A stretch of 64,000 bases of DNA from Xanthobacteraceae bacterium (GTDB taxonomy: Bacteria > Pseudomonadota > Alphaproteobacteria > Rhizobiales > Xanthobacteraceae). The notes beneath the pieces are model-generated. The model saw only the letters and a list, made by a program, of their open reading frames with translations, was not told where the DNA came from and did no database searches. The stretch covers positions 25,001 through 89,000 of the forward strand of contig JBEKNW010000001.1 in NCBI GenBank assembly GCA_049522435.1. Reading direction: 5' to 3'. Below, one piece after another: positions 993 to 25,541 of the stretch (position 1 is its first letter; each line of letters starts with the position of its first letter). The position numbers and the translations under genes were made by a program.

Positions 993-2234
993 ATGAAGGA
1001 TGACGCGTCAATCGCCAAGCTGCGGATCGGCTTGATCGGCAGTGGCTTCATCGCCAAGTTCCACCTCCAGGCGCTGATCGCAGTTCGCCATGTCTCCGTT
1101 GCGGGAGTCTATAGTCCTACCGCCGCGCATCGCGAGGCGCTCGCCGCGGAAGCTAATGTGCTGGAGCTTGGCCCCTGCCGGCCGTTCGCTTCACTCGAAG
1201 CCATGCTGGTTTCCGGTGAGGTTGATGCCGTATGGATCGCTGCGCCGAACTTCACCCGGCTCGACATCATGCGAGAGATCCACGATCTGGTGAAATCCGG
1301 CCGGGCGAAGCTTGTCGGCGTGGTTTGCGAAAAGCCGCTAGGGCGGACGCTCGCCGAAGCGCGGGAGATGCTGCGCCTTGCCGGGGATGCCTCTCTGATC
1401 CACGGCTATCTGGAAAATCAGGTGTTCTCGAGCGCGGTCCAGCGCGGCAAGGACATCGTGTGGCGTCGCGCCGTGCCGATTTGCGGTCGTCCCTACCTGG
1501 CGCGCGCCGCCGAGGAGCATAGCGGGCCGCACATGCCGTGGTTCTGGCAGGGTCAACGGCAAGGCGGAGGTGTGCTCTCCGACATGACTTGTCACAGTGT
1601 CGAGGTGGCGCGCTTTCTGCTGACCGCGCCCGGCGCGCCGCGTAGCGACCTCAAGCTCGTGAGCGCCAGCGCCACTGTCGGCAACCTGAAATGGACCCGG
1701 CCGGAATATGTGGTAAAGCTCAAGCGCATGATGGGTGCCGAGATCGATTATGCCAAGCGGCCGGCCGAGGATTTCGCCCGCGGCGCGCTCACCTTCCGCG
1801 ATGCGCAAGGGCATGAGGTTTTGGTCGAAGCCACCAATTCATGGGCCTATGTGGGCGCCGGCCTGCGCATCCTGATCGAGCTCCTTGGCCCCGAATATTC
1901 CATGGAGTTCAGCTCGCTCAACACCGGGCTGAAAGTGTTTTTGTCGCGCGAGGTGACCGCCGGGCAGGGCGAGGATTTGGTCGAGAAGCAGAACGCCGAG
2001 CAAGGCTTGATGCCGGTGGTCGAGAACGAGGCGGACATCTACGGCTATATCGGTGAGGATCGGCACATGGTCGACGCTCTTCGTCACCGCCGGCGCCCGA
2101 TCGAGACCTTCGAGGACGGCGTCGGCGTGGCCGAGATGTTGATGGCGCTCTATCGCTCGGCGGAGATCGGCCAAGTAGTGAACTTGCCGGCTCCGGAACT
2201 GGAGACCTATGTTCCGCCGGTCGCGCGGCCGTAG
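993..2234 (+). CDS. Gfo/Idh/MocA family NAD(P)-dependent oxidoreductase
   Basis: 413-aa ORF. The N-terminal Rossmann signature LRIGLIGSGFIAKFHLQAL and the overall length and layout fit the family. Confidence 0.8.
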   Translation: MKDDASIAKLRIGLIGSGFIAKFHLQALIAVRHVSVAGVYSPTAAHREALAAEANVLELGPCRPFASLEAMLVSGEVDAVWIAAPNFTRLDIMREIHDLVKSGRAKLVGVVCEKPLGRTLAEAREMLRLAGDASLIHGYLENQVFSSAVQRGKDIVWRRAVPICGRPYLARAAEEHSGPHMPWFWQGQRQGGGVLSDMTCHSVEVARFLLTAPGAPRSDLKLVSASATVGNLKWTRPEYVVKLKRMMGAEIDYAKRPAEDFARGALTFRDAQGHEVLVEATNSWAYVGAGLRILIELLGPEYSMEFSSLNTGLKVFLSREVTAGQGEDLVEKQNAEQGLMPVVENEADIYGYIGEDRHMVDALRHRRRPIETFEDGVGVAEMLMALYRSAEIGQVVNLPAPELETYVPPVARP

Positions 2235-2335
2235 GTCACGAGACAGCCGACGCCCGACGGAAATGTTGCGGTCGGTGCCGTTCGCCTCGTTTCGATCGTT
2301 TCGGCATTGCTATTTTTGCTAGGCCGCGTTTGCTG

Positions 2336-3265
2336 TCAGTAATTTTTGTTGCGACATGCGCCTTCGGGTAATCGAGGTGGCAGCTTCGGCATGGGGGCCA
2401 GCAGTACGTCGGGCATGCACGCCTCAGTGCCGTACGTCGCCGCATCTGCACGGTGCGTCAGCGCTTGCCGGTACTCGCTCGGCGCGACACCGGTGTGCTG
2501 ACGAAAGAACCGGGTGAAATTGCATTGCGCATCGAAGCCGAGACGGCTCGCAACCGACGTCAGGCTCGCCTGGGAGCGGCTCATCTGCAGCATCGCCTCC
2601 TCCAGCCGCAGCGAGTTCCAGAATATGCTCGGCGTAAGTCCCAGTTCGTCACGGAACAACGAGAAAAAGTGAGGACGAGACAAGCCGGACTCTCGCGCCA
2701 CCGTTTCCATGTCGAGATTTCGCGCCATGTTGTTGCGCATGAGCGCCAGCGCCTTGCGAATCCTGAAATCGCGTGCGCTATGGTCTCGCTTTGCATCTGC
2801 GGTCGCCGCTTCACGGGACGCTATCAACGCGTGCTTCAGGAAGGCGGCCAAGGCGCAATCAAGCTCGACTTCGTCGCTCATATCATCAAGCAGCATGTCT
2901 CTCAACATCCACAGTTCTTCTCGCAGAGGCGCCGAGATCGCGATGTCGAGATGCGTGAAACTCCTGGGCGGATGAAGGGGCAACCTCCGCGACAGCCAAT
3001 CCGGGTCGAGATAGAACGACAGGCTCTGTGCTGCACCTGAGCTGCTGTCAACCTTCACGCAGTGCGGCACGAAGCGATCGATGATCGCGGCCTTCTTCGC
3101 GTCATGGCCGACCAGCGTCCCATTGACCAGGACGTGCGCCGGCGCTCCCGACAACCAGAAGCTCACGTTCGCGCTCGAATGAGCGTGCGTCACGAGTTCG
3201 GTCGTCAGTTCGAGAGCGGAAACGTGACCGAACGAGCCGTGGTGAACGCGAAATATCTTCGACAT
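2336..3265 (-). CDS. AraC family transcriptional regulator
   Basis: C-terminal double HTH: ...SGLSRPHFFSLFRDELGLTPSIFWNSLRLEEAMLQM...CNFTRFFRQHTGVAPSEYRQ. Start moved to the internal ATG (MSKIFRVHH, 3265). The track ORF extends to 3361. Divergent from the Mo-hydroxylase operon. Confidence 0.8.
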   Translation of the reverse strand: MSKIFRVHHGSFGHVSALELTTELVTHAHSSANVSFWLSGAPAHVLVNGTLVGHDAKKAAIIDRFVPHCVKVDSSSGAAQSLSFYLDPDWLSRRLPLHPPRSFTHLDIAISAPLREELWMLRDMLLDDMSDEVELDCALAAFLKHALIASREAATADAKRDHSARDFRIRKALALMRNNMARNLDMETVARESGLSRPHFFSLFRDELGLTPSIFWNSLRLEEAMLQMSRSQASLTSVASRLGFDAQCNFTRFFRQHTGVAPSEYRQALTHRADAATYGTEACMPDVLLAPMPKLPPRLPEGACRNKNY

Positions 3266-3528
3266 TGGGTTTCCACCCGAAACCACGGCTTCTGCTACAC
3301 TATGTCCTGCGAATTTGGCCGCTTTAGCTTGGATTAGAAATCCATCCGCGCCCGGCGTCAATGTGGGGCCCCCGCAGCCCTGGCAAAACCAGATAGATTG
3401 ATAAGCGCACCCGCCACGGTCCGGCTATGCTGTCGTTATCTACGGTTCGGCTTCGACGGACTGCTGCCGGGCATGCGGCGTCCGGCTTGGCACGCTCGCC
3501 GCGCCGCCGGCGAGAAGAGAGCGAACGA

Positions 3529-4341
3529 ATGACCCTTGCCTATCAAAGCTTTAATGATCCGCAGGCCGCCTCCCGCTTCCTGGCTGAACGGCAGGAGGCG
3601 CGGCTGCTGGGCGGCGGAACGATCCTGGTGCGGCGCGTGAACGAAGGCGATATCTCGATCGGCACCTATGTCCGCCTGCTCGCGCCGGAGCTCAAACAAA
3701 TCGACGTGACCGACGACATGGTACGGCTCGGTGCCGGCGTGACGATGTCGAGAATTGCGAAAACCCCTGGGCTTGCCTTCCTCGCTCCCGTCGCCAAGTC
3801 GATCGGCGGTCCGGCCGTCCGGTCGGCGGCGACGGTAGGCGGCAATCTTTTCGCGCGGAGCCCCTATGGCGATTTCGGTGTCGCACTGCTCGCGCTGGAT
3901 GCCGTCGTTTCCATCGCAAGTCCCGAAGGCTTCGGCGAATTCGATCTCGAGACGTTCTTCAAGTCGCGCACGCAACTCGCCGCCGCCTCCATCGTCACGG
4001 CAGTTCGCTTCCCTCGCCCCATGCCCGACGATTTTCGCTTCGTCAAAATCAGCCGTGTTAAGCCGAATGGCGCCGCCGTGCTGTCGATAGCTGCCGTGGT
4101 TTCGACGACGGAAGGCCGCGTTTCAGCAGCGCGTGTTGCCCTCGGCGCCATGGCGGGCACGCCTGTCCGCGCACATAGTCTGGAAGAGGCGCTAAAGGGA
4201 GCGGCGCTGACGCCGCACGAGATTGAACGAATAGTGGCGTCGGCCGTGGCGGATACGTCGCCTTCGTCCGACGCGATCGCAAGCGAATGGTACCGGAAGG
4301 CAGTGCTCCCCGTTCATCTCCGCCGGTTGCTTTCGAGCTGA
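3529..4341 (+). CDS. Molybdenum hydroxylase (xanthine dehydrogenase family) FAD-binding subunit, CoxM/NdhF-like
   Basis: LLGGGTILVRR...GAGVT...GGPAVRSAATVGGNL pattern of the FAD-binding domain. Start placed at MTLAYQSF (3529); the track ORF begins at 3427 with an Arg-rich extension. First gene of a four-ORF operon. Confidence 0.8.
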   Translation: MTLAYQSFNDPQAASRFLAERQEARLLGGGTILVRRVNEGDISIGTYVRLLAPELKQIDVTDDMVRLGAGVTMSRIAKTPGLAFLAPVAKSIGGPAVRSAATVGGNLFARSPYGDFGVALLALDAVVSIASPEGFGEFDLETFFKSRTQLAAASIVTAVRFPRPMPDDFRFVKISRVKPNGAAVLSIAAVVSTTEGRVSAARVALGAMAGTPVRAHSLEEALKGAALTPHEIERIVASAVADTSPSSDAIASEWYRKAVLPVHLRRLLSS

Positions 4342-4368
4342 ATTCCTCGATTTCCCGTGAGCTGCGTC

Positions 4369-4869
4369 ATGACAAAAGTACCTGTCCAAATGACCGTGAA
4401 TGGCGAAGAGCGGGCCGAATTCGTCGACAGCGGAACGACGCTTCTCAGGTTCTTGCGGGACAAGATCGGCGACCTCACGCCAAAAGCCGGCTGTCTCCAG
4501 GGAACTTGCGGCACATGCACGGTTGTGGTCGACGGGGAGCCTCGCCTCGCATGCATTACGCTGGCGGAGGACTGCCGCGGCGGGACCGTCGAGACGGTCG
4601 CGGGTCTCTCGGCGGATGGCAAATTGCATCCTTTGCAGCAGGCCTTGCTCGACCACTTCGCAGCCCAGTGCGGCTTCTGCACGCCCGGCATGCTCATGGC
4701 GGCGAAAGCGCTGCTTGATGCAAACCCCCATCCCGATCGGGCCGACGTGGAAGACGCGCTCAGCGGCAACATCTGCCGATGCACCGGCTATGAGCCGATC
4801 ATCAGAGCCGTCCTGTCCGTTTCCCGGAGCCATGCTCGCCGCGGCACACCGGAACGGGGAGCGGTGTGA
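4369..4869 (+). CDS. Molybdenum hydroxylase [2Fe-2S] small subunit, CoxS/NdhS-like
   Basis: Both cluster motifs are present: GCLQGTCGTCTV and CGFCTPGM...CRCTGY. An alternative GTG start lies at 4357. The stop overlaps the next start (ATGA-type junction at 4866). Confidence 0.85.
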   Translation: MTKVPVQMTVNGEERAEFVDSGTTLLRFLRDKIGDLTPKAGCLQGTCGTCTVVVDGEPRLACITLAEDCRGGTVETVAGLSADGKLHPLQQALLDHFAAQCGFCTPGMLMAAKALLDANPHPDRADVEDALSGNICRCTGYEPIIRAVLSVSRSHARRGTPERGAV

Positions 4870-6236
4870 TGGAGATACGCAAAAGCTATTTCGCCGACGA
4901 GCGCCGCGATGATCTCAAGGAGATCGGCCAGTCGAGGCAGCGCTCCGACACGGCCGGGCACGTCCGCGGCATCACGCCGTTCTATGCCGACCGGCACGTT
5001 CCAGCGCTCCTCCACCTCCGCATGGTCCGCAGTCCGCACCACCATGCACGGATCCTGCGGATCGATACGAGTGCGGCGGAGCGGCATCCCGGCGTCAAGC
5101 GGATCATTACGGCAAAAGACGTTCCGCACAATGTCTATACCGTGCTGAACCTGATCAATATCGGACCGGAAGACGAGCCGGTGCTTGCCTTCGACAAGGT
5201 ACGCTGGCTTGGCGAGCCTGTGGTCGCCATCGTCGCCGACAGCGAACGAGGCGCCTATGAGGCGGCTGCTTTGGTGCGCGTCGACTACGAAGAGCTTCCC
5301 GCAGTCTTCGATGTCGAGGAAGCGCTCAGGCCCGGCGCGCCCCTGGTCAACGAATATCATGGGCAAAATTATTATCGCTATGACAGCGGCGCGAGCCGCA
5401 AGGTCAAGCTCGGGGATGTGGAGGCAGGCTTCCGAAAAGCCGATCACATCCTGGAGGAGCGTTACGACTCCAGTCCCATGGAGCACGCGCCGACCGAGAC
5501 GACAGGGTGTATCGTGGTGCCCGATCAGAATAACCGTCTGACCTGCTATACCGGAACTCAGGCGATCTTCTTCACCCTCGATAACGCGTCGATCATCCTC
5601 GATATACCGGGCCAGCGCCTGCATTTCATCGGCGGCACTGCGGGCGGCGGCTTCGGGGGCAAGGTGGACTGCACCGTGGAGCCGATCACCCTGCTGGCCG
5701 CCATGCTCACCGGTCGGCCCGTCGCCTTCATCTACAATCGTTACGAAGAGATGCAGATCTCTTCAGCCAGGGCGGCCGAGCGTATCTACATCAAGGACGG
5801 CCTGACGAAAGATGGGCGAATCGTGGCCCGTCAGGTGCGATGCTATGTCGACTCTGGCGCCTATTCCCGCCATTCACCCTACGGCGCGCAGAAGGCGGCG
5901 GCGCATTTCCCGGGACCCTATTCGATTCCCAATGTCGAGATCGATTGCTATTGCGTCTACACCAATCGAACGCCGTCGAGCTCCATGCGCGGCTTCGGCG
6001 TCACTATCGCGGACTTCGCCCTCGAGGTCCAGATGGACAAGCTGGCGCGCATCATTGGAATGGACCCGCTGGAATTCCGTTTCATCAACGCCTACCGGGA
6101 TGGCGATATGAAGGCGCATCGTCAGCTCACGGAAGGGGCTGCGCTGATCGAATGTATGCAGGAGGCGTCCATCTGGGCAAATTGGCCGGTCGAATCCCGT
6201 TTCCTGAAGATGTCATCGCGCGAGAAGAGAGGGTAG
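4866..6236 (+). CDS. Molybdopterin-binding large subunit, N-terminal part (NdhL-like, 456 aa)
   Basis: Aldehyde oxidase/xanthine dehydrogenase a/b-hammerhead and MoCo domain motifs (GGGFGGK, SSSMRGFGVTIADFALEVQMD). Ends at TAG 6234-6236, in the same frame as the next ORF. Confidence 0.8.
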   Translation: MMEIRKSYFADERRDDLKEIGQSRQRSDTAGHVRGITPFYADRHVPALLHLRMVRSPHHHARILRIDTSAAERHPGVKRIITAKDVPHNVYTVLNLINIGPEDEPVLAFDKVRWLGEPVVAIVADSERGAYEAAALVRVDYEELPAVFDVEEALRPGAPLVNEYHGQNYYRYDSGASRKVKLGDVEAGFRKADHILEERYDSSPMEHAPTETTGCIVVPDQNNRLTCYTGTQAIFFTLDNASIILDIPGQRLHFIGGTAGGGFGGKVDCTVEPITLLAAMLTGRPVAFIYNRYEEMQISSARAAERIYIKDGLTKDGRIVARQVRCYVDSGAYSRHSPYGAQKAAAHFPGPYSIPNVEIDCYCVYTNRTPSSSMRGFGVTIADFALEVQMDKLARIIGMDPLEFRFINAYRDGDMKAHRQLTEGAALIECMQEASIWANWPVESRFLKMSSREKRG

Positions 6237-6239
6237 CCC

Positions 6240-7253
6240 ATGGCCAGGAAACGTGGCCGCGGCGTTGCGGCCGTCAATTACCCGACCGGCATGAATCTCG
6301 GCGGCGACCCGACACAGGCGCTGGTTCACTCCACCCCGACCGGCAATTTCATAGTGTCGCTCTCAAGTGTCGATCTTGGACAGGGAATGAAGTCGATCAT
6401 GGCGCAGATCTGCGCCGAGACGCTCGGCGTACCGACCGAGCGCGTCATCGTCGATACCGCGGACTCCGATACGGGACCGCATTGCATGGGAACGTTCGCC
6501 TCGCGGGGAACGCATCGCGCCGGCAATGCCGTGATCGCCGCCGCCAAGGAAGCCCGCGATGTGATGCTGGAGGTTGCCGCCAATATGCTCGAGGTGGATT
6601 CCCGCGACCTGCGGACGGATGGCACGGGAAATATCCATATCGTCGGCGTGCCGAGCAAATCGGTCTCGGTGACCGACGTCGCCTTGGCCGCGCACTTCCA
6701 ACAGGGCCGATCCATCTCCGGGCGCGGGATGTTTTTCATACCACGCTCCTATCCCTCGCCGACGGATGGAGCGATGAAGCCGTCGACCTGCTATGCCCAC
6801 GCCTGCACGATCGCGGAAGTCGAGGTCGACACCGAGACCGGCGAAGTCGATGTTCTGTCGCTCAAGAGCGTCTATGAGGTCGGCCGGGCCTTGAATCCAA
6901 AGATGGTCGAGCAGCAGCTCGTCGGCGGCACCTGGATGGGCATGAGCCACGCGCTCTACGAGACCACGGAGCCCTACTATCCCGCGCGCGACCATGGCGC
7001 TAGGGATTTCAACGAGTATCTTATGCTTGGCCTCGGCGACCTGCCCAAGACCGAGATCCGCATTATCGAACGGCCGGCGCCGGATGGTCCCTACGGCGCC
7101 AAGGGCCTCGGTGAGATGTGCGCGAATGCCCCCATTCCCGCCATTGCCAATGCAATCTTCGACGCAGTCGGCGTCCGCGTCGACAGCCTGCCGCTCTCTC
7201 CCGAGAAGATTCTGCGAGCGCTCCTGGCGAGAGGGAGCTCGGCAGCGGCATGA
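6240..7253 (+). CDS. Molybdopterin-binding large subunit, C-terminal part (NdhM-like, 337 aa)
   Basis: Starts MARKRGRGVAAVNYPTG, the usual start of MoCo domains 3/4. Contains the conserved active-site region PYGAKGLGEMCANAPIPAIANAI. The purine-rich GAGAAGAGAGGG lies 6 nt upstream of the ATG. Confidence 0.8.
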   Translation: MARKRGRGVAAVNYPTGMNLGGDPTQALVHSTPTGNFIVSLSSVDLGQGMKSIMAQICAETLGVPTERVIVDTADSDTGPHCMGTFASRGTHRAGNAVIAAAKEARDVMLEVAANMLEVDSRDLRTDGTGNIHIVGVPSKSVSVTDVALAAHFQQGRSISGRGMFFIPRSYPSPTDGAMKPSTCYAHACTIAEVEVDTETGEVDVLSLKSVYEVGRALNPKMVEQQLVGGTWMGMSHALYETTEPYYPARDHGARDFNEYLMLGLGDLPKTEIRIIERPAPDGPYGAKGLGEMCANAPIPAIANAIFDAVGVRVDSLPLSPEKILRALLARGSSAAA

Positions 7254-7546
7254 TCGACCCCAGATCCGTTGCTTTCGACCCGCAAGGCCGAATGCCATCG
7301 TGCGCGGCGCATTATCATGCCGTCTGAAACTTGCGCCGCCCCCCTTGTGCTGCCCCAGAAGCGCAAGTTATTAATCAAGTGAACTGCCAGCGATTTCACC
7401 ATATCGGCAGACGACAACAGAGATAGGGAAGGAGGCGCATGCGGGTCCCGTCCTCCCTTGATCGAGTTGGCGAGGCTCGCTCTTCTCGATGTTCGACGGC
7501 AGACCGCATCCTGACCTTACAATTAAACGAGCGGAGGAAATAGGCT

Positions 7547-8572
7547 ATGAATAAGCTCTTTGCTGCCGGCGTCGCGGCGCTGGCCCTGTGGTCCACGTCC
7601 GCCTACGCCGAGGACGGCTCGAAAATCGTCGTCGGCCTGTCCAACGGCTATTTCGGCACGGAATGGCGCAATCAAATGGTTGCCGGCGCCAACGAACAGT
7701 TCGACTTCTACAAGTCGAAGGGAATGGCCGGCCAGCTTATCGTGCAGCAGGCCGGCGCCGACACCAATCAGCAGATCCAAGATATCCGTAACATGATCCA
7801 GCAGCATGTTTCGGTCATCATGGTGAACGCCAATTCGGCGACCGCGCTCAACGGCGTTTTCGCCGAGGCGCACAAGGCCAACATTCCCGTCGTCTCCTTC
7901 GACCAGGCGGTGACCAGCCCCTATGCTGTCAATGTGACGGTCGATCACTATGCCTGGGGCATGCGCTATGCCGAATGGCTGGCGAAGGCACTCAACGGCA
8001 AGGGCAAGATCGTCGTCGTGGACGGCATCCCCGGCCACCCGGCGGCTGAAGCCCGGCGCAAGGCCGCGCTGGATACATTCGCCAAGAATCCCGGTCTGGA
8101 CATTGTCTGGCAGGGATATGGCTTATGGGATCAGGCCAAGGCCCAGGCCGCTATGTCGACGGTGCTCGCCTCGCAGCCGCAGATCGACGGCGTCTTCGTC
8201 GAGGATTCGATGGCGCTTGGCGTGATGCGGGCATTCGAGAACGCGGGCCGTCCCATCCCCACCATGACCGGCGAGACGCAGAAGGCGTTCCTGGAGGAGT
8301 GGAAAACGGTTCTTCTCAAGCAGCCGGACCTCAAGATATTCGCTCAGGTCAACCCGCCCGACATCAGCCGTACCGCCCTCGGCATTGCGGTGCGCATCGC
8401 CGCAGGGCGGACGCTTAAGCCGCTGAAGGACAATACCTACTATTATCCGATCACCACCTTCGTTGATTCGGCGGATCTCGACGCGACGCTGGCCAAGATG
8501 AAGGATAAGCCGAATGGCTACTTCCTCGCCACGTGGCTGAGCGAGGATCAGCTTGACGCTTTGTTCCAATAG
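7547..8572 (+). CDS. ABC transporter periplasmic substrate-binding protein (ribose/sugar-type, Peripla_BP family)
   Basis: Signal peptide MNKLFAAGVAALALWSTSAYA. The body resembles RbsB-type binding proteins. First gene of an ABC operon. Confidence 0.85.
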   Translation: MNKLFAAGVAALALWSTSAYAEDGSKIVVGLSNGYFGTEWRNQMVAGANEQFDFYKSKGMAGQLIVQQAGADTNQQIQDIRNMIQQHVSVIMVNANSATALNGVFAEAHKANIPVVSFDQAVTSPYAVNVTVDHYAWGMRYAEWLAKALNGKGKIVVVDGIPGHPAAEARRKAALDTFAKNPGLDIVWQGYGLWDQAKAQAAMSTVLASQPQIDGVFVEDSMALGVMRAFENAGRPIPTMTGETQKAFLEEWKTVLLKQPDLKIFAQVNPPDISRTALGIAVRIAAGRTLKPLKDNTYYYPITTFVDSADLDATLAKMKDKPNGYFLATWLSEDQLDALFQ

Positions 8573-8638
8573 AGAAGATGGCCGTCGAGGCGCACGACAT
8601 GCGCGCCTCGACGGCCGCATGGTGACGAAAGAGCGGCA

Positions 8639-10129
8639 GTGTCGATCCTGACCGCGCGGGGCGTGGTAAAGCGGTTCGGCGGCGTGGTGGCGCTGAACGG
8701 TGCGGAAATATCATTGTCCGCCGGTCGCGTCGGCGGCCTGCTCGGCGCGAACGGTGCGGGCAAATCGGTCCTCTCCGCCATCCTCGCCGGCGAGATCAGG
8801 CCCGACGAAGGCGAGATGTCCTTCGACGGCCGCCCGGTTTCTCATCCTTCACCGCGGGCAGCGCGCGATCGCGGCATCGTCATTGCCCATCAGCACGCCA
8901 GCCTGGTGCCGGACCTGCCGGTCTGGGAGAATCTGTTTCTCGGAGCCGAACGGCGCGGCCGGTTCGGCCTCATCGACCGGGAGGGCAGCCGCACGGCAGC
9001 GGCGGAAGCGTTGGCGCGGCTTTCCCCGGATTTCGATGTCGATCGCCTTGCCGGCGAGCTTTCGAGCGCGGAGCAGCAACTCGTCGAGATCGCGCGCGCC
9101 CTGCTGCGAAAGCCGCGCGTTCTCATCCTCGACGAACCGACCGCCAGCCTGGCGCATACCGAAGTCGAGCGTCTGTTCCAGGAAATCCGGAAACTGGCCG
9201 GCGAAGGGGTGGCAACGGTATTCATCTCGCACCGTCTGCCCGAAGTGGAGGAGATCTGCGACGATTTGGTGGTGCTCCGCAATGGGCAGACCGTCGGCAG
9301 TTGGTCCATCGGCGCCAAGCTCGATCACGACCGGCTGCTGTCGCTGATGACGGGCGAAACCGAAATCGCGGCGCACGAGCGGCTGGTACGCGACATCGGC
9401 CCGGTCGTACTGGAGGCGGCCGGGCTCGCCGTCACTCCGCGGCACGAAGGGGCGACGCTCGCGCTACGGTGCGGTGAAATAGTCGGGCTTGCCGGTCTAC
9501 AGGGCCAAGGTCAGGAAGAGATTCTCGAGGCGCTTGCCGGGGGGCGCCGTATTGCGGCCGGCCGGGTCCGGGTCGAGGGTGGCGAGCTGCGGCCGCGGCG
9601 GCCACGCGACATGATCCGCCACGGCGTGTGCCTGGTGCCCGGCGACCGCCATCGGCAGGGTCTCTTCATTGGTCAGTCGATAGAAGAGAATCTCGACTAC
9701 CCGTCAGCCTGCGTTCGTCGCCGGCCGTGGACCCTGCCTTTCGCCGAGATCCGCCGCAGCGCCCTTGAGATCATCAGGTGGCTGGGGATCAAGGCCAGCG
9801 GACCGACGCAAGCGGTCGGCGCGCTGAGCGGCGGCAACCAGCAGAAGGTGGTGATCGGCAAATGGCTGCCGCTCGCGACCAAGGTCCTGCTGCTGAGCGA
9901 CCCCGCGAAAGGGGTCGACGTCCGTGCCAAGGGCGAGATCTATGCCGCGGTCGAGCGTCTTGCCGCCGACGGCGCCGGCGTGCTGCTCTACGCGTCCGAC
10001 TTCCAGGAGTTGCTCAGCCTGTGCGACCGCGTGCTGGTCGTCTACGACGGGCGCATCGTCGGTGAGTTCGCGGGCGAGACGATGACCGAATATAACCTGC
10101 TCGCTGCCTCCTTCGGGCGCGCGGCATGA
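8639..10129 (+). CDS. Sugar-type ABC transporter ATP-binding protein (duplicated ATPase)
   Basis: 496 aa with two ABC cassettes: Walker A GANGAGKS, signature LSSAEQQ / LSGGNQQK, and Walker B ILILDEPT / LLLSDP. Confidence 0.9.
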   Translation: MSILTARGVVKRFGGVVALNGAEISLSAGRVGGLLGANGAGKSVLSAILAGEIRPDEGEMSFDGRPVSHPSPRAARDRGIVIAHQHASLVPDLPVWENLFLGAERRGRFGLIDREGSRTAAAEALARLSPDFDVDRLAGELSSAEQQLVEIARALLRKPRVLILDEPTASLAHTEVERLFQEIRKLAGEGVATVFISHRLPEVEEICDDLVVLRNGQTVGSWSIGAKLDHDRLLSLMTGETEIAAHERLVRDIGPVVLEAAGLAVTPRHEGATLALRCGEIVGLAGLQGQGQEEILEALAGGRRIAAGRVRVEGGELRPRRPRDMIRHGVCLVPGDRHRQGLFIGQSIEENLDYPSACVRRRPWTLPFAEIRRSALEIIRWLGIKASGPTQAVGALSGGNQQKVVIGKWLPLATKVLLLSDPAKGVDVRAKGEIYAAVERLAADGAGVLLYASDFQELLSLCDRVLVVYDGRIVGEFAGETMTEYNLLAASFGRAA

Positions 10130-11061
10130 GGGCCCTTCGCCACGCCGGCCTGCTGCCGAGCCTGGGAATGCTGATCGTCGTCTTCGCGATCAATGTCGCG
10201 CTCCAGCCCGGTCTCCTGACGCGCGGGTCTTTGTCCAGCAATATCGCCACCTTTGCCCCGACCGTGCTGGTCAGCGCCGCGCAGGCCATCATCGTGTTGA
10301 GCGGCGAACTCGATCTGTCCGTCGGGACCGGTGTGTCGATGCTCAATTGCGCATTGGCGACACTGCCGGAGCTCGCGGGTTGGGGCCTGTGGCCGACCCT
10401 CGCCGCGACCTTCGCGATCGCCCTGCTGGCCGGAGCGACGAACGGCGTGCTCGTCGCCTATCTGCGGCTGCCGTCGCTCATCGTCACATTCGCCACCAGC
10501 GCGATCTGGTTCGGTGTGGCGCTGATCTTCCGGCCGCAGCCGGGCGGCAGCGTCGACCCGGCATTCGGCGACTTCTACGCCGGCAGCGTCTGGGGTGTTC
10601 CGATCGCGCTGATCCTCATCCTTGTCGCCCTCGGTCTCTGGTCGGCGCTGCAACGCTATCCACTGGGGCGGCAATTGCTGGCGGTCGGAGGCAACTCCGT
10701 GGCCGCCTTCCATGCCGGCATTGCCGTCCGCTGGGTCAAGTTTTGCGGCTACTGCATCGCGTGGTGCTTCGTCTACCTTGGCTCCCTCGCCATCTCGGCA
10801 CAGACCCTCTCCGGCGATTCCCGGCTGGGTCTTCCTTACACCTTGACCTCGGTGGCGGCCGTGGTGATCGGCGGCATTTCGCTCGCCGGCGGCCGCGGCT
10901 CGGTCTGGGGTGCGGCGTTCGGCGCAATCGCGCTGGGACTCGTCGCCAATGTCATCTACTTCGCCGGCATCCCCAGCATCTATCAGGAGTTCTTCAAAGG
11001 CATCGTGATCTGCATGGCCTTGAGCTTCACCTTCATCGTCGGCCGGAGGAAAACCGCGTGA
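10126..11061 (+). CDS. ABC transporter permease (ribose-type)
   Basis: Multi-TM protein with the VVIGGISLAGGRGSVWG motif. The start overlaps the ATPase stop. Confidence 0.85.
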   Translation: MRALRHAGLLPSLGMLIVVFAINVALQPGLLTRGSLSSNIATFAPTVLVSAAQAIIVLSGELDLSVGTGVSMLNCALATLPELAGWGLWPTLAATFAIALLAGATNGVLVAYLRLPSLIVTFATSAIWFGVALIFRPQPGGSVDPAFGDFYAGSVWGVPIALILILVALGLWSALQRYPLGRQLLAVGGNSVAAFHAGIAVRWVKFCGYCIAWCFVYLGSLAISAQTLSGDSRLGLPYTLTSVAAVVIGGISLAGGRGSVWGAAFGAIALGLVANVIYFAGIPSIYQEFFKGIVICMALSFTFIVGRRKTA

Positions 11062-11999
11062 TCACATTCCTGCGCACCGGCGGACTGTTGCTGGCTCTTA
11101 GCGTTGTATTGATGGTCCTGGGAAATTTCGTTACGCCCGGGTTCCTCAGTTTCACGCAAGTCAGTACGCAGCTCAAGATCAGCGCGTTCCTCGGCCTGTT
11201 CGCGCTGTGCCAAACTTTCGTCCTCATCGCCGGCGGTGAAGGTATCGATCTCTCGGTCGGCGCCAACGGCTCGCTCGGCGGCATCGTCGGCGCCGCGCTT
11301 ATTCAGGGCCAGGATAGCGCCGTCCTGCCGGTCGCCATCCTCATGGGACTGGCCGGCGCCGCCGTCGGCACAATCAACGGGCTGGGCGTGGCGCTGTTCG
11401 GCGTGCCGCCCCTGGTGATGACGCTGGCGATCGCCAGCATCGTCAACGGCGGGCTGATCATTTTCGAATCGATCGCGCAGCCGGCAATCGCCGCGAGCCC
11501 TTTTCTGGCGCAGCTCGCCGGCCGCACCACCTTAGGCGTGCCCAACATCTTCCTCTTATGGATCGCCATCGGGCTGGCTGCGGTGTGGTTTCTCTCTGCC
11601 ACCGCCTGGGGCCGCAAGATTTTCGGCACCGGCGCAAACGCCCAGGTGGCGCTGCTCTCCGGCACCAATGTTCCGCTGGTGAAGATATCGGTCTATGCGA
11701 TCAGCGGGCTCGTCGCGGCGCTCAGCGGGTTTTGCCTCATCGGTTACGTCGGCGCGGCCTTTCTCGGCTTGGGCGACGCTTACGTGTTGTCGAGCATTGT
11801 GGTCGCAGTGATCGGCGGCATGTCGCTTGCCGGCGGCAGGGGATCCTATATCGGTGTCGCCGCCGCGGCCATTCTGATCACGGTCTTGACCAGCCTCTTG
11901 ACCACGATGCAGATCGGCGAGGCGGGACGCCAGATTGTGTTCGGCTGCATCCTCGTCGTTTTCCTGCTGCTCAACCGCCGCCTCGACCGCGCGGGCTGA
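11058..11999 (+). CDS. ABC transporter permease (ribose-type), second subunit
   Basis: In-frame GTG at 11058 overlaps the previous stop (GTGA). VITFLRTGGLLLALS...VAVIGGMSLAGGRGSYIG. The upstream 237 codons of track ORF 10347..11999 are an Arg-rich shadow frame over permease 1. Confidence 0.8.
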   Translation: MITFLRTGGLLLALSVVLMVLGNFVTPGFLSFTQVSTQLKISAFLGLFALCQTFVLIAGGEGIDLSVGANGSLGGIVGAALIQGQDSAVLPVAILMGLAGAAVGTINGLGVALFGVPPLVMTLAIASIVNGGLIIFESIAQPAIAASPFLAQLAGRTTLGVPNIFLLWIAIGLAAVWFLSATAWGRKIFGTGANAQVALLSGTNVPLVKISVYAISGLVAALSGFCLIGYVGAAFLGLGDAYVLSSIVVAVIGGMSLAGGRGSYIGVAAAAILITVLTSLLTTMQIGEAGRQIVFGCILVVFLLLNRRLDRAG

Positions 12000-14959: not shown

Positions 14960-15829
14960 GTGCGGCCGTTTCGCTGGGTGAGACCGACTAGCCTTCAGGA
15001 AGTGATCGGCTTCCTGGAGGAGCATGGCGCCGCCGCCGTGTTGCTCGCGGGCGGCACCGACCTCATCGTCGGTCTGCGCGACGGGAAGATAGCCCCGCGC
15101 GTAATCATCGACGTGAAACGTACAAGCGACCTGCCACCGATCATCACCGAAGCAGATGGTTGGCTCACGATCAGCGCGACAGTGGCGCTGAGCGATATCG
15201 AAAGGCACGAGACCGTGCGTTTCCACTTCCCGGCGCTTGCGGAGGCCGCAGGCGTGGTGGGATCCATCCAAATTCGTAACCGCGCCACCTTGGTCGGTAA
15301 CGTCTGCAACGCCTCCCCGGCCGCGGACACCGTTCCCGTGCTCGCAGTATACGGCGCTTTTGTAAAAGTGCTCGGCCCCGGTGGCGAGCGGCGGTTACCT
15401 ATCGTCGACTTCATTCAGGGCAACCGACGCACCGCCCTTGCTGCCGGCGAGCTCGCCACGGCCGTGAGCATCCCGTTTCCAAATCAGCCCTTCGGCGCTG
15501 CCTTCGCCCGAATTACACGGCGGCGCGGCGTCGACTTGGCCACCGTGAACCTCTGCTGCGGCATCGACAATGCCGGAGTGACGACTTTCGCATTCGGCGC
15601 CGTGTCGCCGCGCCCCCTGCTGCTGCGAGACGCTGGTGGCGCCCTAGCCGATCCATTTGCCGCAGCCGAGGCTAAAGCAATCGCGCTGGACGCTTTGATC
15701 TCGAAGGCCTCTCCTATCACGGACGTGCGTGCGAGTGCGCAATACCGTCTGGCGATGCTGAGGGTATTGGCAAAGCGAGCCCAACGCCGAGCTGCCGAAA
15801 GACTTGCCGATGGAAAGAAACATGGGTGA
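14960..15829 (+). CDS. Molybdenum hydroxylase FAD-binding subunit (CoxM-like)
   Basis: LLAGGTDLIVGLRDG...IRNRATLVGNVCNASPAAD, plus a CO-dehydrogenase flavoprotein C-terminal-like tail (RASAQYRLAMLRVL). Confidence 0.8.
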   Translation: MRPFRWVRPTSLQEVIGFLEEHGAAAVLLAGGTDLIVGLRDGKIAPRVIIDVKRTSDLPPIITEADGWLTISATVALSDIERHETVRFHFPALAEAAGVVGSIQIRNRATLVGNVCNASPAADTVPVLAVYGAFVKVLGPGGERRLPIVDFIQGNRRTALAAGELATAVSIPFPNQPFGAAFARITRRRGVDLATVNLCCGIDNAGVTTFAFGAVSPRPLLLRDAGGALADPFAAAEAKAIALDALISKASPITDVRASAQYRLAMLRVLAKRAQRRAAERLADGKKHG

Positions 15830-18644
15830 CACGAACCCAATCGAAATTACCGTCAACGGCCGACGCCACTCGTTGGATATCGGCTCCAACACCACCTTGT
15901 TGGACCTGCTGCGCGACACCTTGCACCTGTACGGTCCGAAAGAGTGCTGTGGCGTGGGCGAGTGCGGCGCCTGCACGGTGTCCGTCAACGGCCGCACCGT
16001 CAACTCCTGCCTAATGCTTGCCGTCGAGGCCGACGACGCCGAGGTGGTCACGATCGAAGGGCTCGGCGCCGGGGAACTCAACCCACTGCAAGAGGCCTTC
16101 ATCGACCACGGTGCGGTGCAGTGCGGGTTCTGCATCCCCGGTATGCTGATGTCCGCCCAAGCGCTACTCGACCAGGACCTGCAACCAGACGATGAGAAGA
16201 TTCGCGAAGGTTTGTCGGGTAACCTTTGCCGTTGCGGCGGGTACAATCGGATAGTCGAAGCCGTCCGCGCAGTGGCGACAGCGGGTGGAACCGGCAAGGA
16301 TACCCGCGCGAAGAAGTTTGCCGGCGACGATGCGGGATGTGGTCCGCATCGGCCAGACCACGCGCCCAGGCGCTACGGACAAAACGTCGAAACCTGCGTC
16401 GGCGCCAATGTGCGGCGTCTCGGCGGCCGCGAACGCGTGAGTGGAATCCAAAAATTCCTTGCGGACATCCCGCTTCAGGGCATGCTTCACGTCAAACTTG
16501 TCACCCTTGACGCGGCCCGAGCACGCATCGTCTCCATCGACACCACCGAGGCTCGCACTCTGCCCGGTGTCGTCGACATCATTACGGCGGACGATTTACC
16601 AACGCCGGTTCCGCGTTTCGGCCCGGTCTACAAGGACCGGCCAGTCCTCGCAGTTAGTGAGACCAAATACCACGGTGAGCCCGTGGCGGCCGTGGCGGCA
16701 GAGTCGAAGGAGACGGCCGAACTGGCGGTGTCCTTGGTGCGCGTCGAATACGAGGCATTGCCCGCGGCTTTCTCCGTGACGGGCGCGCTCGCGCCGGATG
16801 CGCCACTCGTGCAAGACCCGGCGCTCCGTGCCGGCGATCCGCTGGCCGCCACCAATGTCCTCAAGGAGCGGAGATATGGCTGGGGCGACGTCGACTCCGC
16901 GAAGGCCGACATCGTTGTCGAGAATTCTTATTCATTCCCGATGGTTACGCATTTTGCGATCGAGCCCCACGGTTTCATGGCGTTGGTCGAGAAAGACGGT
17001 CTGAAAATATGGAGTCCGGTCCAGCATCCGTTCCTGCTGCAGAGGATCATGGCGGAGCTCTTCGACCTGCCGTTGACCCAGGTGCGCGTATTTGCTCCAG
17101 ATCCGGGCGGTGGTTTCGGCGGGAAGCAAAACCCCAAGCTTGAGCCTCTAGTGACATACCTGGCGCTTCGCACTGGCCGCCCTTGCCGGCTGGTGCTCAG
17201 CCTGGAGGAGACATTCCAGGCCGTTCGGCGCACTGCCGCGGAGATACACGTACGCACCGGTTTCACCCGATCCGGGGAAATACTCTTTCAGGACATCAAA
17301 TCCGACTTTCTGGTCGGTGCCTATGCCGACATCGCGGAACGGGTCATGACCAAGGCGAACTATTTGGGCTGTGGCCCTTACCGGACAGCCAACGCCAGAA
17401 TCCACGCCCGGGCGGTGCTATCGCACACTACGCCTAGTTGCGCCTTTCGCGGCTTCGGCGCGCCGCAAATCGCTTGGGCAGTGGAGTCGCAGATGGACGC
17501 AGCGGCTCGGGAACTCGGCTTGGACGGGTTGAACATCCGAATGCGCAATCTTGCAAGGAAAGGGGATGAGGTCGTGCGCGGGGACACGCCCGCAGATGGC
17601 AACTGGCCGGAAACGGTGCGCCGTGCGGCGGAAGCGGTGGGCTGGAACACCCCGCTTGCTCCTGGGCGTGGTCGCGGGATTGCCGTGGGCATCAAGTCCG
17701 GCGCCACCACGGGTCTTTCAAACTCCACCATACGGCTGCTCGCCGACGGCAGCGTCATCATCTATGCCGGAACATCCGACATGGGCCAGGGGGCAAGGAC
17801 GATTTTCGCTCAGCTCGCGGCGGACGCGCTCGGCGCACCACTGGAAAAAGTGTCGGTGGTGATGGGGGATACTTCCGTAGTACCCTTCGACCTGCAAACA
17901 TCGGCGAGCCGGTCGACGGTGTTCATGGGCACTGCCATCGTTCGTGCTTGCGAGGACATCCACGAGCAATTGCGCGAGATGGCCGCCGACCTGCTTGGGT
18001 ACGCCAAGGCCGAAGTGAGCGTAGCGAGCGGCGTGGTGAACCTTCCGGACCGCGCATTGTCGATTGCCGAATTCATTGCAGGCAAGCTCGGGCCCTGGAA
18101 CGGCGAACTGATCGGCAATGGCCGGATGCGAAAACCGGCCGCGCCCGACCATCCGCTGGGTGGGACGCCGGCCTTTTACGAGTTCAACTGCACCGCGTTT
18201 GAAGTCGAGGTGGACACCGATACCGGCGAGATTCTCATTCACAAGCACGTCACCGTCGGCGATGTCGGGAAGGCGCTGAACCCACTACAGGTGGAGGCGC
18301 AGGATGAGGGCGCGGCTATCATGGGGCTCGGTCACACGTTGATGGAACATATCATTCTCGATGGCGAAGGACGTATCAGCAATCTCGGTGCCCTGGACTA
18401 CCGCATTCCGACTACCAAGGATGTCCCGCTAGCGCTGCAGGCGCTGAGTGTTGAGAACGCGGACGGCCCAGGACCTTACGGATCAAAGGGGGTCAGCGAA
18501 GGCGCTTTGCTCTGCACCGCCCCGGCACTTGCTGCGGCTTTAACCCAGGCGACCGGTGTCGTGATCAGGGACCTACCTCTGACGCCGGAGCGCGTGTGGC
18601 GGGCCATACAGGATGGCTCTGGCCGGGACAGGTCAGGCCGATGA
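15822..18644 (+). CDS. Fused [2Fe-2S] small subunit / molybdopterin-binding large subunit of a xanthine dehydrogenase-family hydroxylase
   Basis: N-terminus: CGVGECGACTV and CGFCIPGM...CRCGGY. A ~60-aa linker follows, then the hammerhead and MoCo domains (GGGFGGKQ, SCAFRGFGAPQIAWAVESQMD, PGPYGSKGVSEGALLC). The start overlaps the FAD-subunit stop by 8 nt. Confidence 0.85.
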   Translation: MGDTNPIEITVNGRRHSLDIGSNTTLLDLLRDTLHLYGPKECCGVGECGACTVSVNGRTVNSCLMLAVEADDAEVVTIEGLGAGELNPLQEAFIDHGAVQCGFCIPGMLMSAQALLDQDLQPDDEKIREGLSGNLCRCGGYNRIVEAVRAVATAGGTGKDTRAKKFAGDDAGCGPHRPDHAPRRYGQNVETCVGANVRRLGGRERVSGIQKFLADIPLQGMLHVKLVTLDAARARIVSIDTTEARTLPGVVDIITADDLPTPVPRFGPVYKDRPVLAVSETKYHGEPVAAVAAESKETAELAVSLVRVEYEALPAAFSVTGALAPDAPLVQDPALRAGDPLAATNVLKERRYGWGDVDSAKADIVVENSYSFPMVTHFAIEPHGFMALVEKDGLKIWSPVQHPFLLQRIMAELFDLPLTQVRVFAPDPGGGFGGKQNPKLEPLVTYLALRTGRPCRLVLSLEETFQAVRRTAAEIHVRTGFTRSGEILFQDIKSDFLVGAYADIAERVMTKANYLGCGPYRTANARIHARAVLSHTTPSCAFRGFGAPQIAWAVESQMDAAARELGLDGLNIRMRNLARKGDEVVRGDTPADGNWPETVRRAAEAVGWNTPLAPGRGRGIAVGIKSGATTGLSNSTIRLLADGSVIIYAGTSDMGQGARTIFAQLAADALGAPLEKVSVVMGDTSVVPFDLQTSASRSTVFMGTAIVRACEDIHEQLREMAADLLGYAKAEVSVASGVVNLPDRALSIAEFIAGKLGPWNGELIGNGRMRKPAAPDHPLGGTPAFYEFNCTAFEVEVDTDTGEILIHKHVTVGDVGKALNPLQVEAQDEGAAIMGLGHTLMEHIILDGEGRISNLGALDYRIPTTKDVPLALQALSVENADGPGPYGSKGVSEGALLCTAPALAAALTQATGVVIRDLPLTPERVWRAIQDGSGRDRSGR

Positions 18645-24278: not shown

Positions 24279-25541
24279 TTATTTAACTGCATCGGCGTAC
24301 GGATAGATGAGATCTCCCGTTTTGTATTTCGCCGGCGCCACGATTGCTTGAACCGACACGTCCTTGAACTGATCGATGCCGTTACCTTTGATGTTTTGGA
24401 ATTGGACCTCCAACACGCGCGATTGGGCCCATTCCCCCTGTCGCCCGAATTTGACGTCGCCGACGACGGTGTTGAACGTGGCGCTGCTGATGTAGTCGAT
24501 GAGCTTGCTATCATCGAGGCTCTTGGTGGCCTCTACAGCGTGACCCAGCACCTGCAATTCTGCGTAACCCCACGGTGCAATATAGTAACCGAGAGGATCG
24601 ACGCCCTCCGCCGGCGCCCGTGCTTGGTATTTCTTGATAAATTCGAGCACGCCGGGGAATTCCATGGTCTTCACGGGTAGCCAGAAATCGTAGTTGACGA
24701 ATCCGTTGAGCAGCGGGCCCAATTGTGTCTTGAACACCGTTGCCTGCAGTCCGACCATCGCACCGCCGATCACCTTTGGTTTAAATCCAGCTTCATTAAC
24801 GGCGCGCACCATTCCCACCGAATCAAGCGGATAAGAACCGATAAAGACCAGGTCCGGGTTGGTCGCTTGGATCGCCCGGACGATCGAGGCAAACTCGGTG
24901 TTCGTCGGCGGGTAGGTTTTGTCGTAGACGATTTTCAGCCCGGCGGCCTTGGCGTCTATGCGCGCGCCTTCCATAGCGTTTTGTGAGAACTCCGCATCCG
25001 CCCCCACAATCGCGATCGTCTGCGGCTTCGGGTTCTGCGCCATCGCCGCGTCGAAAAACCCTTTAGCGAACGCGGGCTTCGGATCCGGACCGTCCGGGAT
25101 CATTGCAAAATAACCCGGATAATCGAAAGAGCTGTTAGCGGCAACCCCAAAAAGTCCAATGAACACCTTCTTTTTCCGGATGGCGATCGGTATGGCCGGC
25201 GCCAGCATGTTGGTGGCATAGCCGCCCATAATCAGGTCGACCTGGTCGATGTCCAAAAGCTTGGTGTAGATGCCCGGCACGGTCGAGGGATTGGACTGAT
25301 CATCGTAGTAAACGAGCTTGACCGGCCGGCCGAGCAGTCCACCTTGGGCATTGATGTCTTCCTCCCAGATCTTCATCGCCAGGAGCGCGGACTTGCCATT
25401 CGCCGCGAGCGGTCCGGTCAATGACATACCGAAGCCAATTCGTATTGGATCTGCGGCCCTGGCCGGCCCCCAGGCTACAGCAGTTGCCACGATTCCCGCG
25501 GCAACGCAGGCGATTGATCGAGACAATAGGTGATGAAGCAT
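24279..25541 (-). CDS. HAAT-family ABC transporter substrate-binding protein (LivK-like)
   Basis: Signal peptide, then DPIRIGFGMSLTGPLAANGKSALLAMKIWEEDINAQGGLLGRPVKLVYYDDQSNP. Confidence 0.85.
   Translation of the reverse strand: MLHHLLSRSIACVAAGIVATAVAWGPARAADPIRIGFGMSLTGPLAANGKSALLAMKIWEEDINAQGGLLGRPVKLVYYDDQSNPSTVPGIYTKLLDIDQVDLIMGGYATNMLAPAIPIAIRKKKVFIGLFGVAANSSFDYPGYFAMIPDGPDPKPAFAKGFFDAAMAQNPKPQTIAIVGADAEFSQNAMEGARIDAKAAGLKIVYDKTYPPTNTEFASIVRAIQATNPDLVFIGSYPLDSVGMVRAVNEAGFKPKVIGGAMVGLQATVFKTQLGPLLNGFVNYDFWLPVKTMEFPGVLEFIKKYQARAPAEGVDPLGYYIAPWGYAELQVLGHAVEATKSLDDSKLIDYISSATFNTVVGDVKFGRQGEWAQSRVLEVQFQNIKGNGIDQFKDVSVQAIVAPAKYKTGDLIYPYADAVK

Follow-up and report, generated by a model that had tools for sequence, protein, structure and literature searches.

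The 64,000-nucleotide stretch of DNA analysed here (hereafter the window; positions 25,001 to 89,000 of contig JBEKNW010000001.1, forward strand) comes from a Xanthobacteraceae bacterium represented by a draft metagenome-assembled genome (MAG) of 317 contigs and 93.7% completeness. Between positions 3427 and 7253 it carries four genes for an enzyme that, judged by its domains and motifs, belongs to the xanthine oxidase/CO dehydrogenase family of molybdenum (Mo) hydroxylases. The Mo-binding protein of this enzyme is divided between two consecutive open reading frames (ORFs), L and M, and the nature of this division is our main subject. The features concerned, all on the plus strand, are the following.

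3427–4341, plus strand: subunit F, binding flavin adenine dinucleotide (Pfam FAD_binding_5 and CO_deh_flav_C)
4357–4869, plus strand: subunit S, with two [2Fe-2S] clusters (Pfam Fer2 and Fer2_2)
4866–6236, plus strand: subunit L, the N-terminal part of the Mo-binding protein, with the hammerhead domain and MoCoBD_1 (Pfam Ald_Xan_dh_C and MoCoBD_1; match to 3HRD_A)
6222–6233, plus strand: purine-rich, Shine-Dalgarno-like (SD-like) stretch GAGAAGAGAGGG within the final L codons, ending 6 nucleotides (nt) 5' of the M start codon
6234–6239, plus strand: L stop codon TAG and the 3-nt spacer CCC, as read from the window sequence
6240–7253, plus strand: subunit M, the C-terminal part of the Mo-binding protein, with MoCoBD_2 and the catalytic glutamate in GAKGLGE (Pfam; match to 3HRD_B)

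The genes thus stand tightly packed in the order F-S-L-M, with S and L overlapping in TGATG and with L and M separated by a stop codon and 3 nt before an ATG. At the L/M junction, positions 6222–6257 read GAGAAGAGAGGG, the stop TAG (6234–6236), the spacer CCC (6237–6239), the ATG that opens M at 6240 and then GCC AGG AAA CGT GGC, which translates as ...SSREKRG*PMARKRGRGVAAVNYPTG (the asterisk marks the stop). The two ORFs, 456 amino acids from the GTG at 4866 and 337 amino acids, lie in one common frame because the spacer is 3 nt long. A sequence-only reading of the window had described this arrangement, including the purine-rich stretch ending 6 nt before the ATG, exactly as it is found, and had left two possibilities, a genuine enzyme of four subunits and a nonsense mutation of very recent date. 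The length given there for M holds, but that for L needs a small correction. Translation of L very probably begins at the ATG at 4869 rather than at the GTG at 4866: this ATG overlaps the stop codon of the Fe-S subunit as TGATG, is preceded by GGGGAG, and yields 455 amino acids, which is the length of L in nearly all database orthologues.

The two ORFs divide the Pfam domains neatly between them: Ald_Xan_dh_C and MoCoBD_1 belong to the first ORF, MoCoBD_2 to the other. Scores are 97 bits for the hammerhead domain, 235 for MoCoBD_1 and 204 for MoCoBD_2, against cut-offs of 27–31 bits. The best matches in the Protein Data Bank (PDB) are the two corresponding chains of the nicotinate dehydrogenase of Eubacterium barkeri, namely NdhL (3HRD_A) for L (E 6e-67, 230 bits, the next entry, 4-hydroxybenzoyl-coenzyme A (CoA) reductase, reaching 165 bits) and NdhM (3HRD_B) for M (E 3e-48, 168 bits, the next entry reaching 146 bits). 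L aligns as far as residue 411 of the 425 residues of NdhL, and residue 3 of M aligns with residue 2 of NdhM; with the division of the Pfam domains, this bears out the earlier proposal that the break falls at an NdhL/NdhM-type domain boundary. The alignments to 3HRD also show GGGFGGK, the RGFG loop and the catalytic glutamate of GxGE to be intact, the catalytic motifs being conserved in L and M as in the E. barkeri enzyme. The gene order in E. barkeri, with ndhF, ndhS, ndhL and then ndhM (PMC10331938), is that of the window, and the cut lies in the same linker, giving pieces of about 50 and 37 kDa. On these grounds (Pfam domains, gene order and the coincident cut) the four-subunit NdhF/S/L/M-type layout suggested before can be accepted.

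The next-best solved homologue of both L and M, HcrA, the alpha subunit of the 4-hydroxybenzoyl-CoA reductase of Thauera aromatica (1RM6), is, unlike the window proteins, a single chain of 769 amino acids; its enzyme reduces a CoA thioester, and the chain falls in a different clade. Residue 441 of L aligns with residue 425 of this chain and residue 5 of M with residue 435, which shows the cut to fall within a linker about 9 residues long. The GRGRGIAVGIK element, quoted in the sequence-only reading from the second, fused hydroxylase of the window, is indeed present there.

A four-gene split design is already established for E. barkeri, and the window operon is an ordinary further example of it. 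Among proteobacteria, the alphaproteobacterial Mo-hydroxylase gene set NdrB1B2B3B4 of Sphingomonas melonis TY has been described as required for nicotine degradation, no activity having been reconstituted (PMC5239795); its adjacent ndrB3 and ndrB4 are both large-subunit-like and, going by their description, apparently show the same kind of split (PMC5239795). HpdA1-4 of Ensifer adhaerens HP1, a four-component 3-hydroxypyridine dehydrogenase (bioRxiv 10.1101/2020.01.08.898148), was considered as another proteobacterial precedent and rejected, its fourth component being an SRPBCC protein and not part of a split large subunit. As a Hyphomicrobiales Mo hydroxylase with a separate SRPBCC protein it resembles most orthologues of the window operon; it is closer to the second, dikinase-linked hydroxylase of the window than to the 3427–7253 operon.

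The conservation of the junction decides between an established gene boundary and a lesion. Our DNA-level search covered 40 related genomes, and every good match broke into an N-terminal and a C-terminal part at one and the same position of the query. Eight such loci, one of them a paralogue from the window's own genome (contig C2) and some from two further families, were mapped at the protein level. In all eight, L and M are distinct genes divided at the same residue; the stop and the ATG lie 2–4 nt apart, and the two genes are mostly in different frames. These eight form a sister clade to the window type, and true orthologues were fetched separately. The resulting set of 80 loci includes a Xanthobacteraceae MAG (94% identity), Lichenihabitans (85%), Ancylobacter sonchi (83%), Rhizobium sp. 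(80%), about sixty Mesorhizobium (approximately 78%), Chelatococcus, Hoeflea, Aquamicrobium and others. In every one of the 80, L and M are cut at the same residue and L ends in a stop codon followed by an own start for M. The stop is TGA in 78 loci and TAA in two; M starts with ATG in 79 and with TTG in one; and an SD-like purine tetramer lies at −16 to −4 in 79. The spacer measures 1 nt in 62 loci, 3 nt in 14, 2 nt in two and 4 nt in one, and in the remaining locus the genes overlap by 4 nt. The comparison of orthologues proposed earlier therefore goes against a nonsense mutation: the split, the start and the SD-like purines are kept, although the TAG and the 3-nt spacer are not general. Likewise, each of the 120 best relatives of L in the database is 453–462 amino acids long and contains the first two domains only, and both NCBI and JGI annotate this product as a separate 'xanthine dehydrogenase family protein molybdopterin-binding subunit'.

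A history in which a single gene for about 795 amino acids was lately broken by a point mutation to TAG, so that the locus is now a recent pseudogene or makes an impaired enzyme, would fit the common frame of the two ORFs, with TAG-CCC alone between them, and the fact that TAG is used by no other orthologue. Such a history would leave relatives with a sense codon and an uninterrupted ORF, and the 88 homologous loci include none; all have a stop and a fresh start at this place, mostly in another frame. The closest orthologue (L029) reads TAA ccg ATG at the junction, so that its stop stands at the same position and the TAG of the window is one transition away from it, and the ATG and the SD-like sequence of the window lie exactly where all relatives have them. 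Against L029, with a dS of about 0.4, the ratio of nonsynonymous to synonymous substitution rates (dN/dS) comes to 0.086 (L) and 0.071 (M), and more distant orthologues give values like these; both halves are under strong purifying selection. We reject a recent nonsense mutation, whose chance we consider to be next to nil. The split is ancestral, old in this lineage and maintained by selection, and the TAG of the window is just the stop codon that this lineage uses.

The same comparison bears on the quality of the assembly. The window derives from a draft genome in many contigs, and the assembly of one relative (G022) shows frameshifts in the same gene, both of which might make one suspect a sequencing or assembly error at 6234. 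An error would, however, have had to re-create by chance a gene boundary found in 88 independent assemblies, together with the flanking SD-like sequence, spacer and ATG that are conserved as well; we reject this reading too and attach hardly any weight to it. In the relative just mentioned (L022, G022:C9:176000-185000) the frameshifts fall inside both L and M and the matches run over two frames; this is probably an assembly error, and it shows that not every frame break in these genes is of biological origin.

The shared frame of L and M in the window would also permit read-through of the TAG, whether programmed or leaky, to an L-M fusion of about 794 amino acids that is functionally relevant beside the separate chains. 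The in-frame layout recurs in 14 of the 80 orthologues, and fused homologues of the family, such as that of 1RM6, are functional enzymes. Against this, the other 66 orthologues have the two genes out of frame, so a fusion is no conserved requirement, and no recoding signal is evident at the junction, whose RNA appears unstructured. No unusual structure was found on folding it: the predicted fold is no better than that of shuffled sequence (z = −0.01), and the SD-like stretch lies in an unpaired loop. A regulatory hairpin at this place was dropped as a candidate on the same value. We judge a functional read-through product highly improbable. With so few orthologues in frame (spacer of 3 nt in 14 of 80), the shared frame, to which the sequence-only reading had given special attention, is incidental and carries no meaning of its own, and nothing supports a special role for the TAG-CCC-ATG layout.

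Taken together, the data make us confident that the genes at 3427–7253 form a four-gene operon (F, S, L, M) for a cytoplasmic Mo hydroxylase whose Mo-binding subunit of about 790 amino acids is made as two polypeptides, an interpretation drawn from sequence comparison and, in our judgement, very likely to be correct. The cut lies in the linker that joins the two molybdopterin-binding halves, in the same place as that between NdhL and NdhM of E. barkeri. At the junction a spacer of −4 to +4 nt lies between the stop of L and the start of M, and the last codons of L contain an SD-like sequence; ribosomes that finish L may re-initiate on M, such translational coupling giving L and M in a ratio of 1:1. 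L and M would then assemble around one Mo-pterin cofactor together with S and F, as in 3HRD. A divergent AraC-type regulator may control the operon, which is paired with a ribose-type importer.

Several points weigh against this interpretation or parts of it. The coupling and the stoichiometry are deduced from the sequence and from the 3HRD precedent. In our tree of M domains (see below) NdhM of E. barkeri falls in a neighbouring clade in which split and fused forms are mixed. Finally, the window copy and its nearest orthologue have lost the SRPBCC, CoxD-like, CoxE-like and Amidohydro_2 genes, which are present with 73–77 of the 80 orthologues.

The main value of these results lies in annotation, as an in-frame stop within what appears to be a single enzyme gene invites a pseudogene call. 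The two-gene design is instead stable and is common to hundreds of Hyphomicrobiales genomes and to the crystallised E. barkeri enzyme. It shows that the Mo-binding subunit withstands being cut at this linker, which is useful for the expression or engineering of such enzymes.

The genome of the window holds about 17 Mo-hydroxylase large subunits, three of which are split, namely the copy in the window, its paralogue on C2 and a pair on contig C236 (G000:C236:24-2128). In the C236 pair the stop and start overlap as GTGA, the contig ends inside M, and M begins with VKKRGKGMAVMWYP / VKKRGKG, very close to NdhM of E. barkeri. An exhaustive, profile-free search with M returned 1,195 representatives at E <= 1e-30, among which, beyond the close family, proteins of 330–350 amino acids (split) and of 750–790 amino acids (fused) are interleaved at 35–43% identity. 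In a quick maximum-likelihood tree of 85 M domains, the window belongs to a clade of 17 rows, all split (support of 98 in the Shimodaira–Hasegawa-like approximate likelihood ratio test, SH-aLRT), with the clade of the eight mapped loci, whose L bears a C-terminal tail, as its sister (100). The starred branches of this tree force at least seven changes between the split and fused forms, a figure that leans upwards, as some short 'split' rows may be fragments. It would appear that the Mo-binding subunit has passed between the two forms several times. Two outgroup members within the all-split clade, placed on their contigs, are split as well: P0140 has an F-S-L-M set with an L of 455 amino acids and a 1-nt junction, and P0133 has on its short contig only the end of L and a junction of 2 nt.

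The distribution of the window type is uneven. Among the 24 congeners searched at the DNA level there was no window-type (tail-less) copy, only the tail-bearing paralogue being found, and the nearest orthologues are in other genera, so that the operon looks like a patchily distributed accessory module. Two contigs labelled as uncultured Acidobacteriaceae MAGs (L088 and L101) also carry an F-S-L-M operon, with an M 78–79% identical to that of the window; this identity is about equal to that of the Mesorhizobium orthologues and suggests horizontal transfer or mis-binning.

On either side of the operon lie the following genes.

2336–3361, minus strand: AraC-family transcriptional regulator, divergent from the operon (Pfam HTH_18 and HTH_AraC)
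7547–11999, plus strand: ribose-type ATP-binding cassette (ABC) importer (Pfam Peripla_BP_4, ABC_tran and BPD_transp_2), made up of a binding protein (7547–8572), a double ATPase (8639–10129) and two permeases (10126–11061 and about 11100–11999)

The true start of F is probably an internal ATG near 3529, as the alignments with orthologues start at residue 26–33 of the ORF 3427–4341. The preceding part, 3427–3528, is an Arg-rich N-terminal extension of 34 codons without a counterpart in the orthologues. If F does start near 3529, a divergent promoter region of approximately 170 nt would be shared with the AraC gene. A scan of 2200–8700 for promoters and terminators gave counts not above those of shuffled sequence, and the limits of the operon are therefore drawn from gene spacing alone. 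None of the curated NCBIfam equivalogs matches the operon proteins at its cut-off, which leaves the enzyme in no named functional family.

The surroundings of the operon are largely conserved among the orthologues. An AraC homologue stands beside it in 73 of the 80 loci, and the S subunit is present in 79. In most orthologues an SRPBCC (Polyketide_cyc2) gene lies 5' of F, and M is followed by genes for a CoxD-like AAA ATPase (77 of 80), a CoxE-like VWA protein (73 of 80) and an Amidohydro_2 protein (75 of 80). The CoxD/CoxE-like neighbours match the NCBIfam names 'MadB/MadC' below cut-off, and a search of the literature for these names yielded nothing of relevance. All four accessory genes remain beside the C2 paralogue in the genome of the window; with these genes missing at the window locus, maturation of the enzyme must depend on genes at other places, such as those next to that paralogue. 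In L029, L030 and L031 as well, the ribose-type importer keeps synteny with the operon. Only about 290 nt (7254–7546) separate M from the sugar-binding-protein gene in the window, as in L029, whereas L030 and L031 have the CoxD-like and CoxE-like genes in this interval, which suggests a deletion of approximately 2.1 kb in the window and L029. The downstream dikinase-linked hydroxylase operon was considered as part of the same syntenic group and set aside; it is absent after the transporter in L029, and the two are treated as separate modules. The other neighbours include a GFO/IDH/MocA oxidoreductase upstream of the operon and an HpaB-like protein.

With NdhL and NdhM as the best solved homologues and an identical gene order, the enzyme might be thought to share with nicotinate dehydrogenase not only the architecture but also, as an orthologue, the function. 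Several observations make this quite unlikely. The window enzyme is a distant relative of the E. barkeri protein, with modest identity to the 3HRD chains and with its M domain in a neighbouring sub-clade, and the lineage it belongs to is aerobic and alphaproteobacterial. Among the neighbours in 1–27.8 kb, none could be recognised as a gene of the nicotinate pathway; they are instead the AraC regulator, the GFO/IDH/MocA protein and the sugar-type importer, joined in the orthologues by a lactonase-type Amidohydro_2 protein. Unlike the E. barkeri enzyme, the orthologues of the window enzyme are accompanied by CoxD/CoxE-type maturases and an SRPBCC protein. The 93.7%-complete genome yielded neither YqeB (TIGR03309) nor YqeC (TIGR03172), which mark selenium-dependent Mo hydroxylases, and SelU was not found either. 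Genes selA and selD do occur on the same contig, 10–19 kb upstream of the window (G000:C1:6252-7595 and 15150-16079), and indicate the use of selenocysteine. A link of the operon to selenium hydroxylases was rejected, given the failure to find YqeB, YqeC and SelU and given that the presence of selD, about 10 kb before the window, is accounted for by selA and selenocysteine synthesis. As far as its gene context goes, nothing points to nicotinate or to selenium for the window enzyme.

A different type of substrate may be proposed for this widespread rhizobial operon, if only tentatively. The orthologous group may be a cytoplasmic molybdenum-dependent dehydrogenase for a substrate of the sugar or sugar-lactone type rather than for an N-heterocycle, a suggestion we regard as possible though rather doubtful. 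It is drawn from the layout SRPBCC-F-S-L-M-CoxD-like-CoxE-like-Amidohydro_2, with the last of fuconolactonase type, and from the ribose-type importer in the sub-clade of the window. The only solved relatives of the Amidohydro_2 protein are the 4DLF/4DNM lactonase group, and its sole NCBIfam match, L-fucono-1,5-lactonase, is well below cut-off; the NCBIfam matches of the importer are to sugar-binding proteins, all below cut-off. For deoxyribose, a molybdenum-dependent sugar dehydrogenase has been shown to be paired with a lactonase (PMC6365646). That enzyme, so far the only type for which such a role is established, is periplasmic and of the IorAB type, whereas the window enzyme is of a different type and predicted to be cytoplasmic.

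The sister clade has some features of its own. Its L proteins (G000:C2:9364-10971 and also L023-L028) carry an extra C-terminal tail of 80–106 amino acids, rich in Pro and Ala. The length of the tail varies and its frame is kept in seven loci. It ends in a conserved RFSS-x-x-G-x-RRR, and the codons of the RRR hold the AGGAGG Shine-Dalgarno sequence of M. The tail is missing in the window clade, P0133 and P0140 and so looks like a gain in the sister clade. In four genomes of three families (L023:348-1307, L025:45-1343, L026 and L027), the sister-clade operon is preceded by a flotillin-domain gene and two tandem SRPBCC genes.

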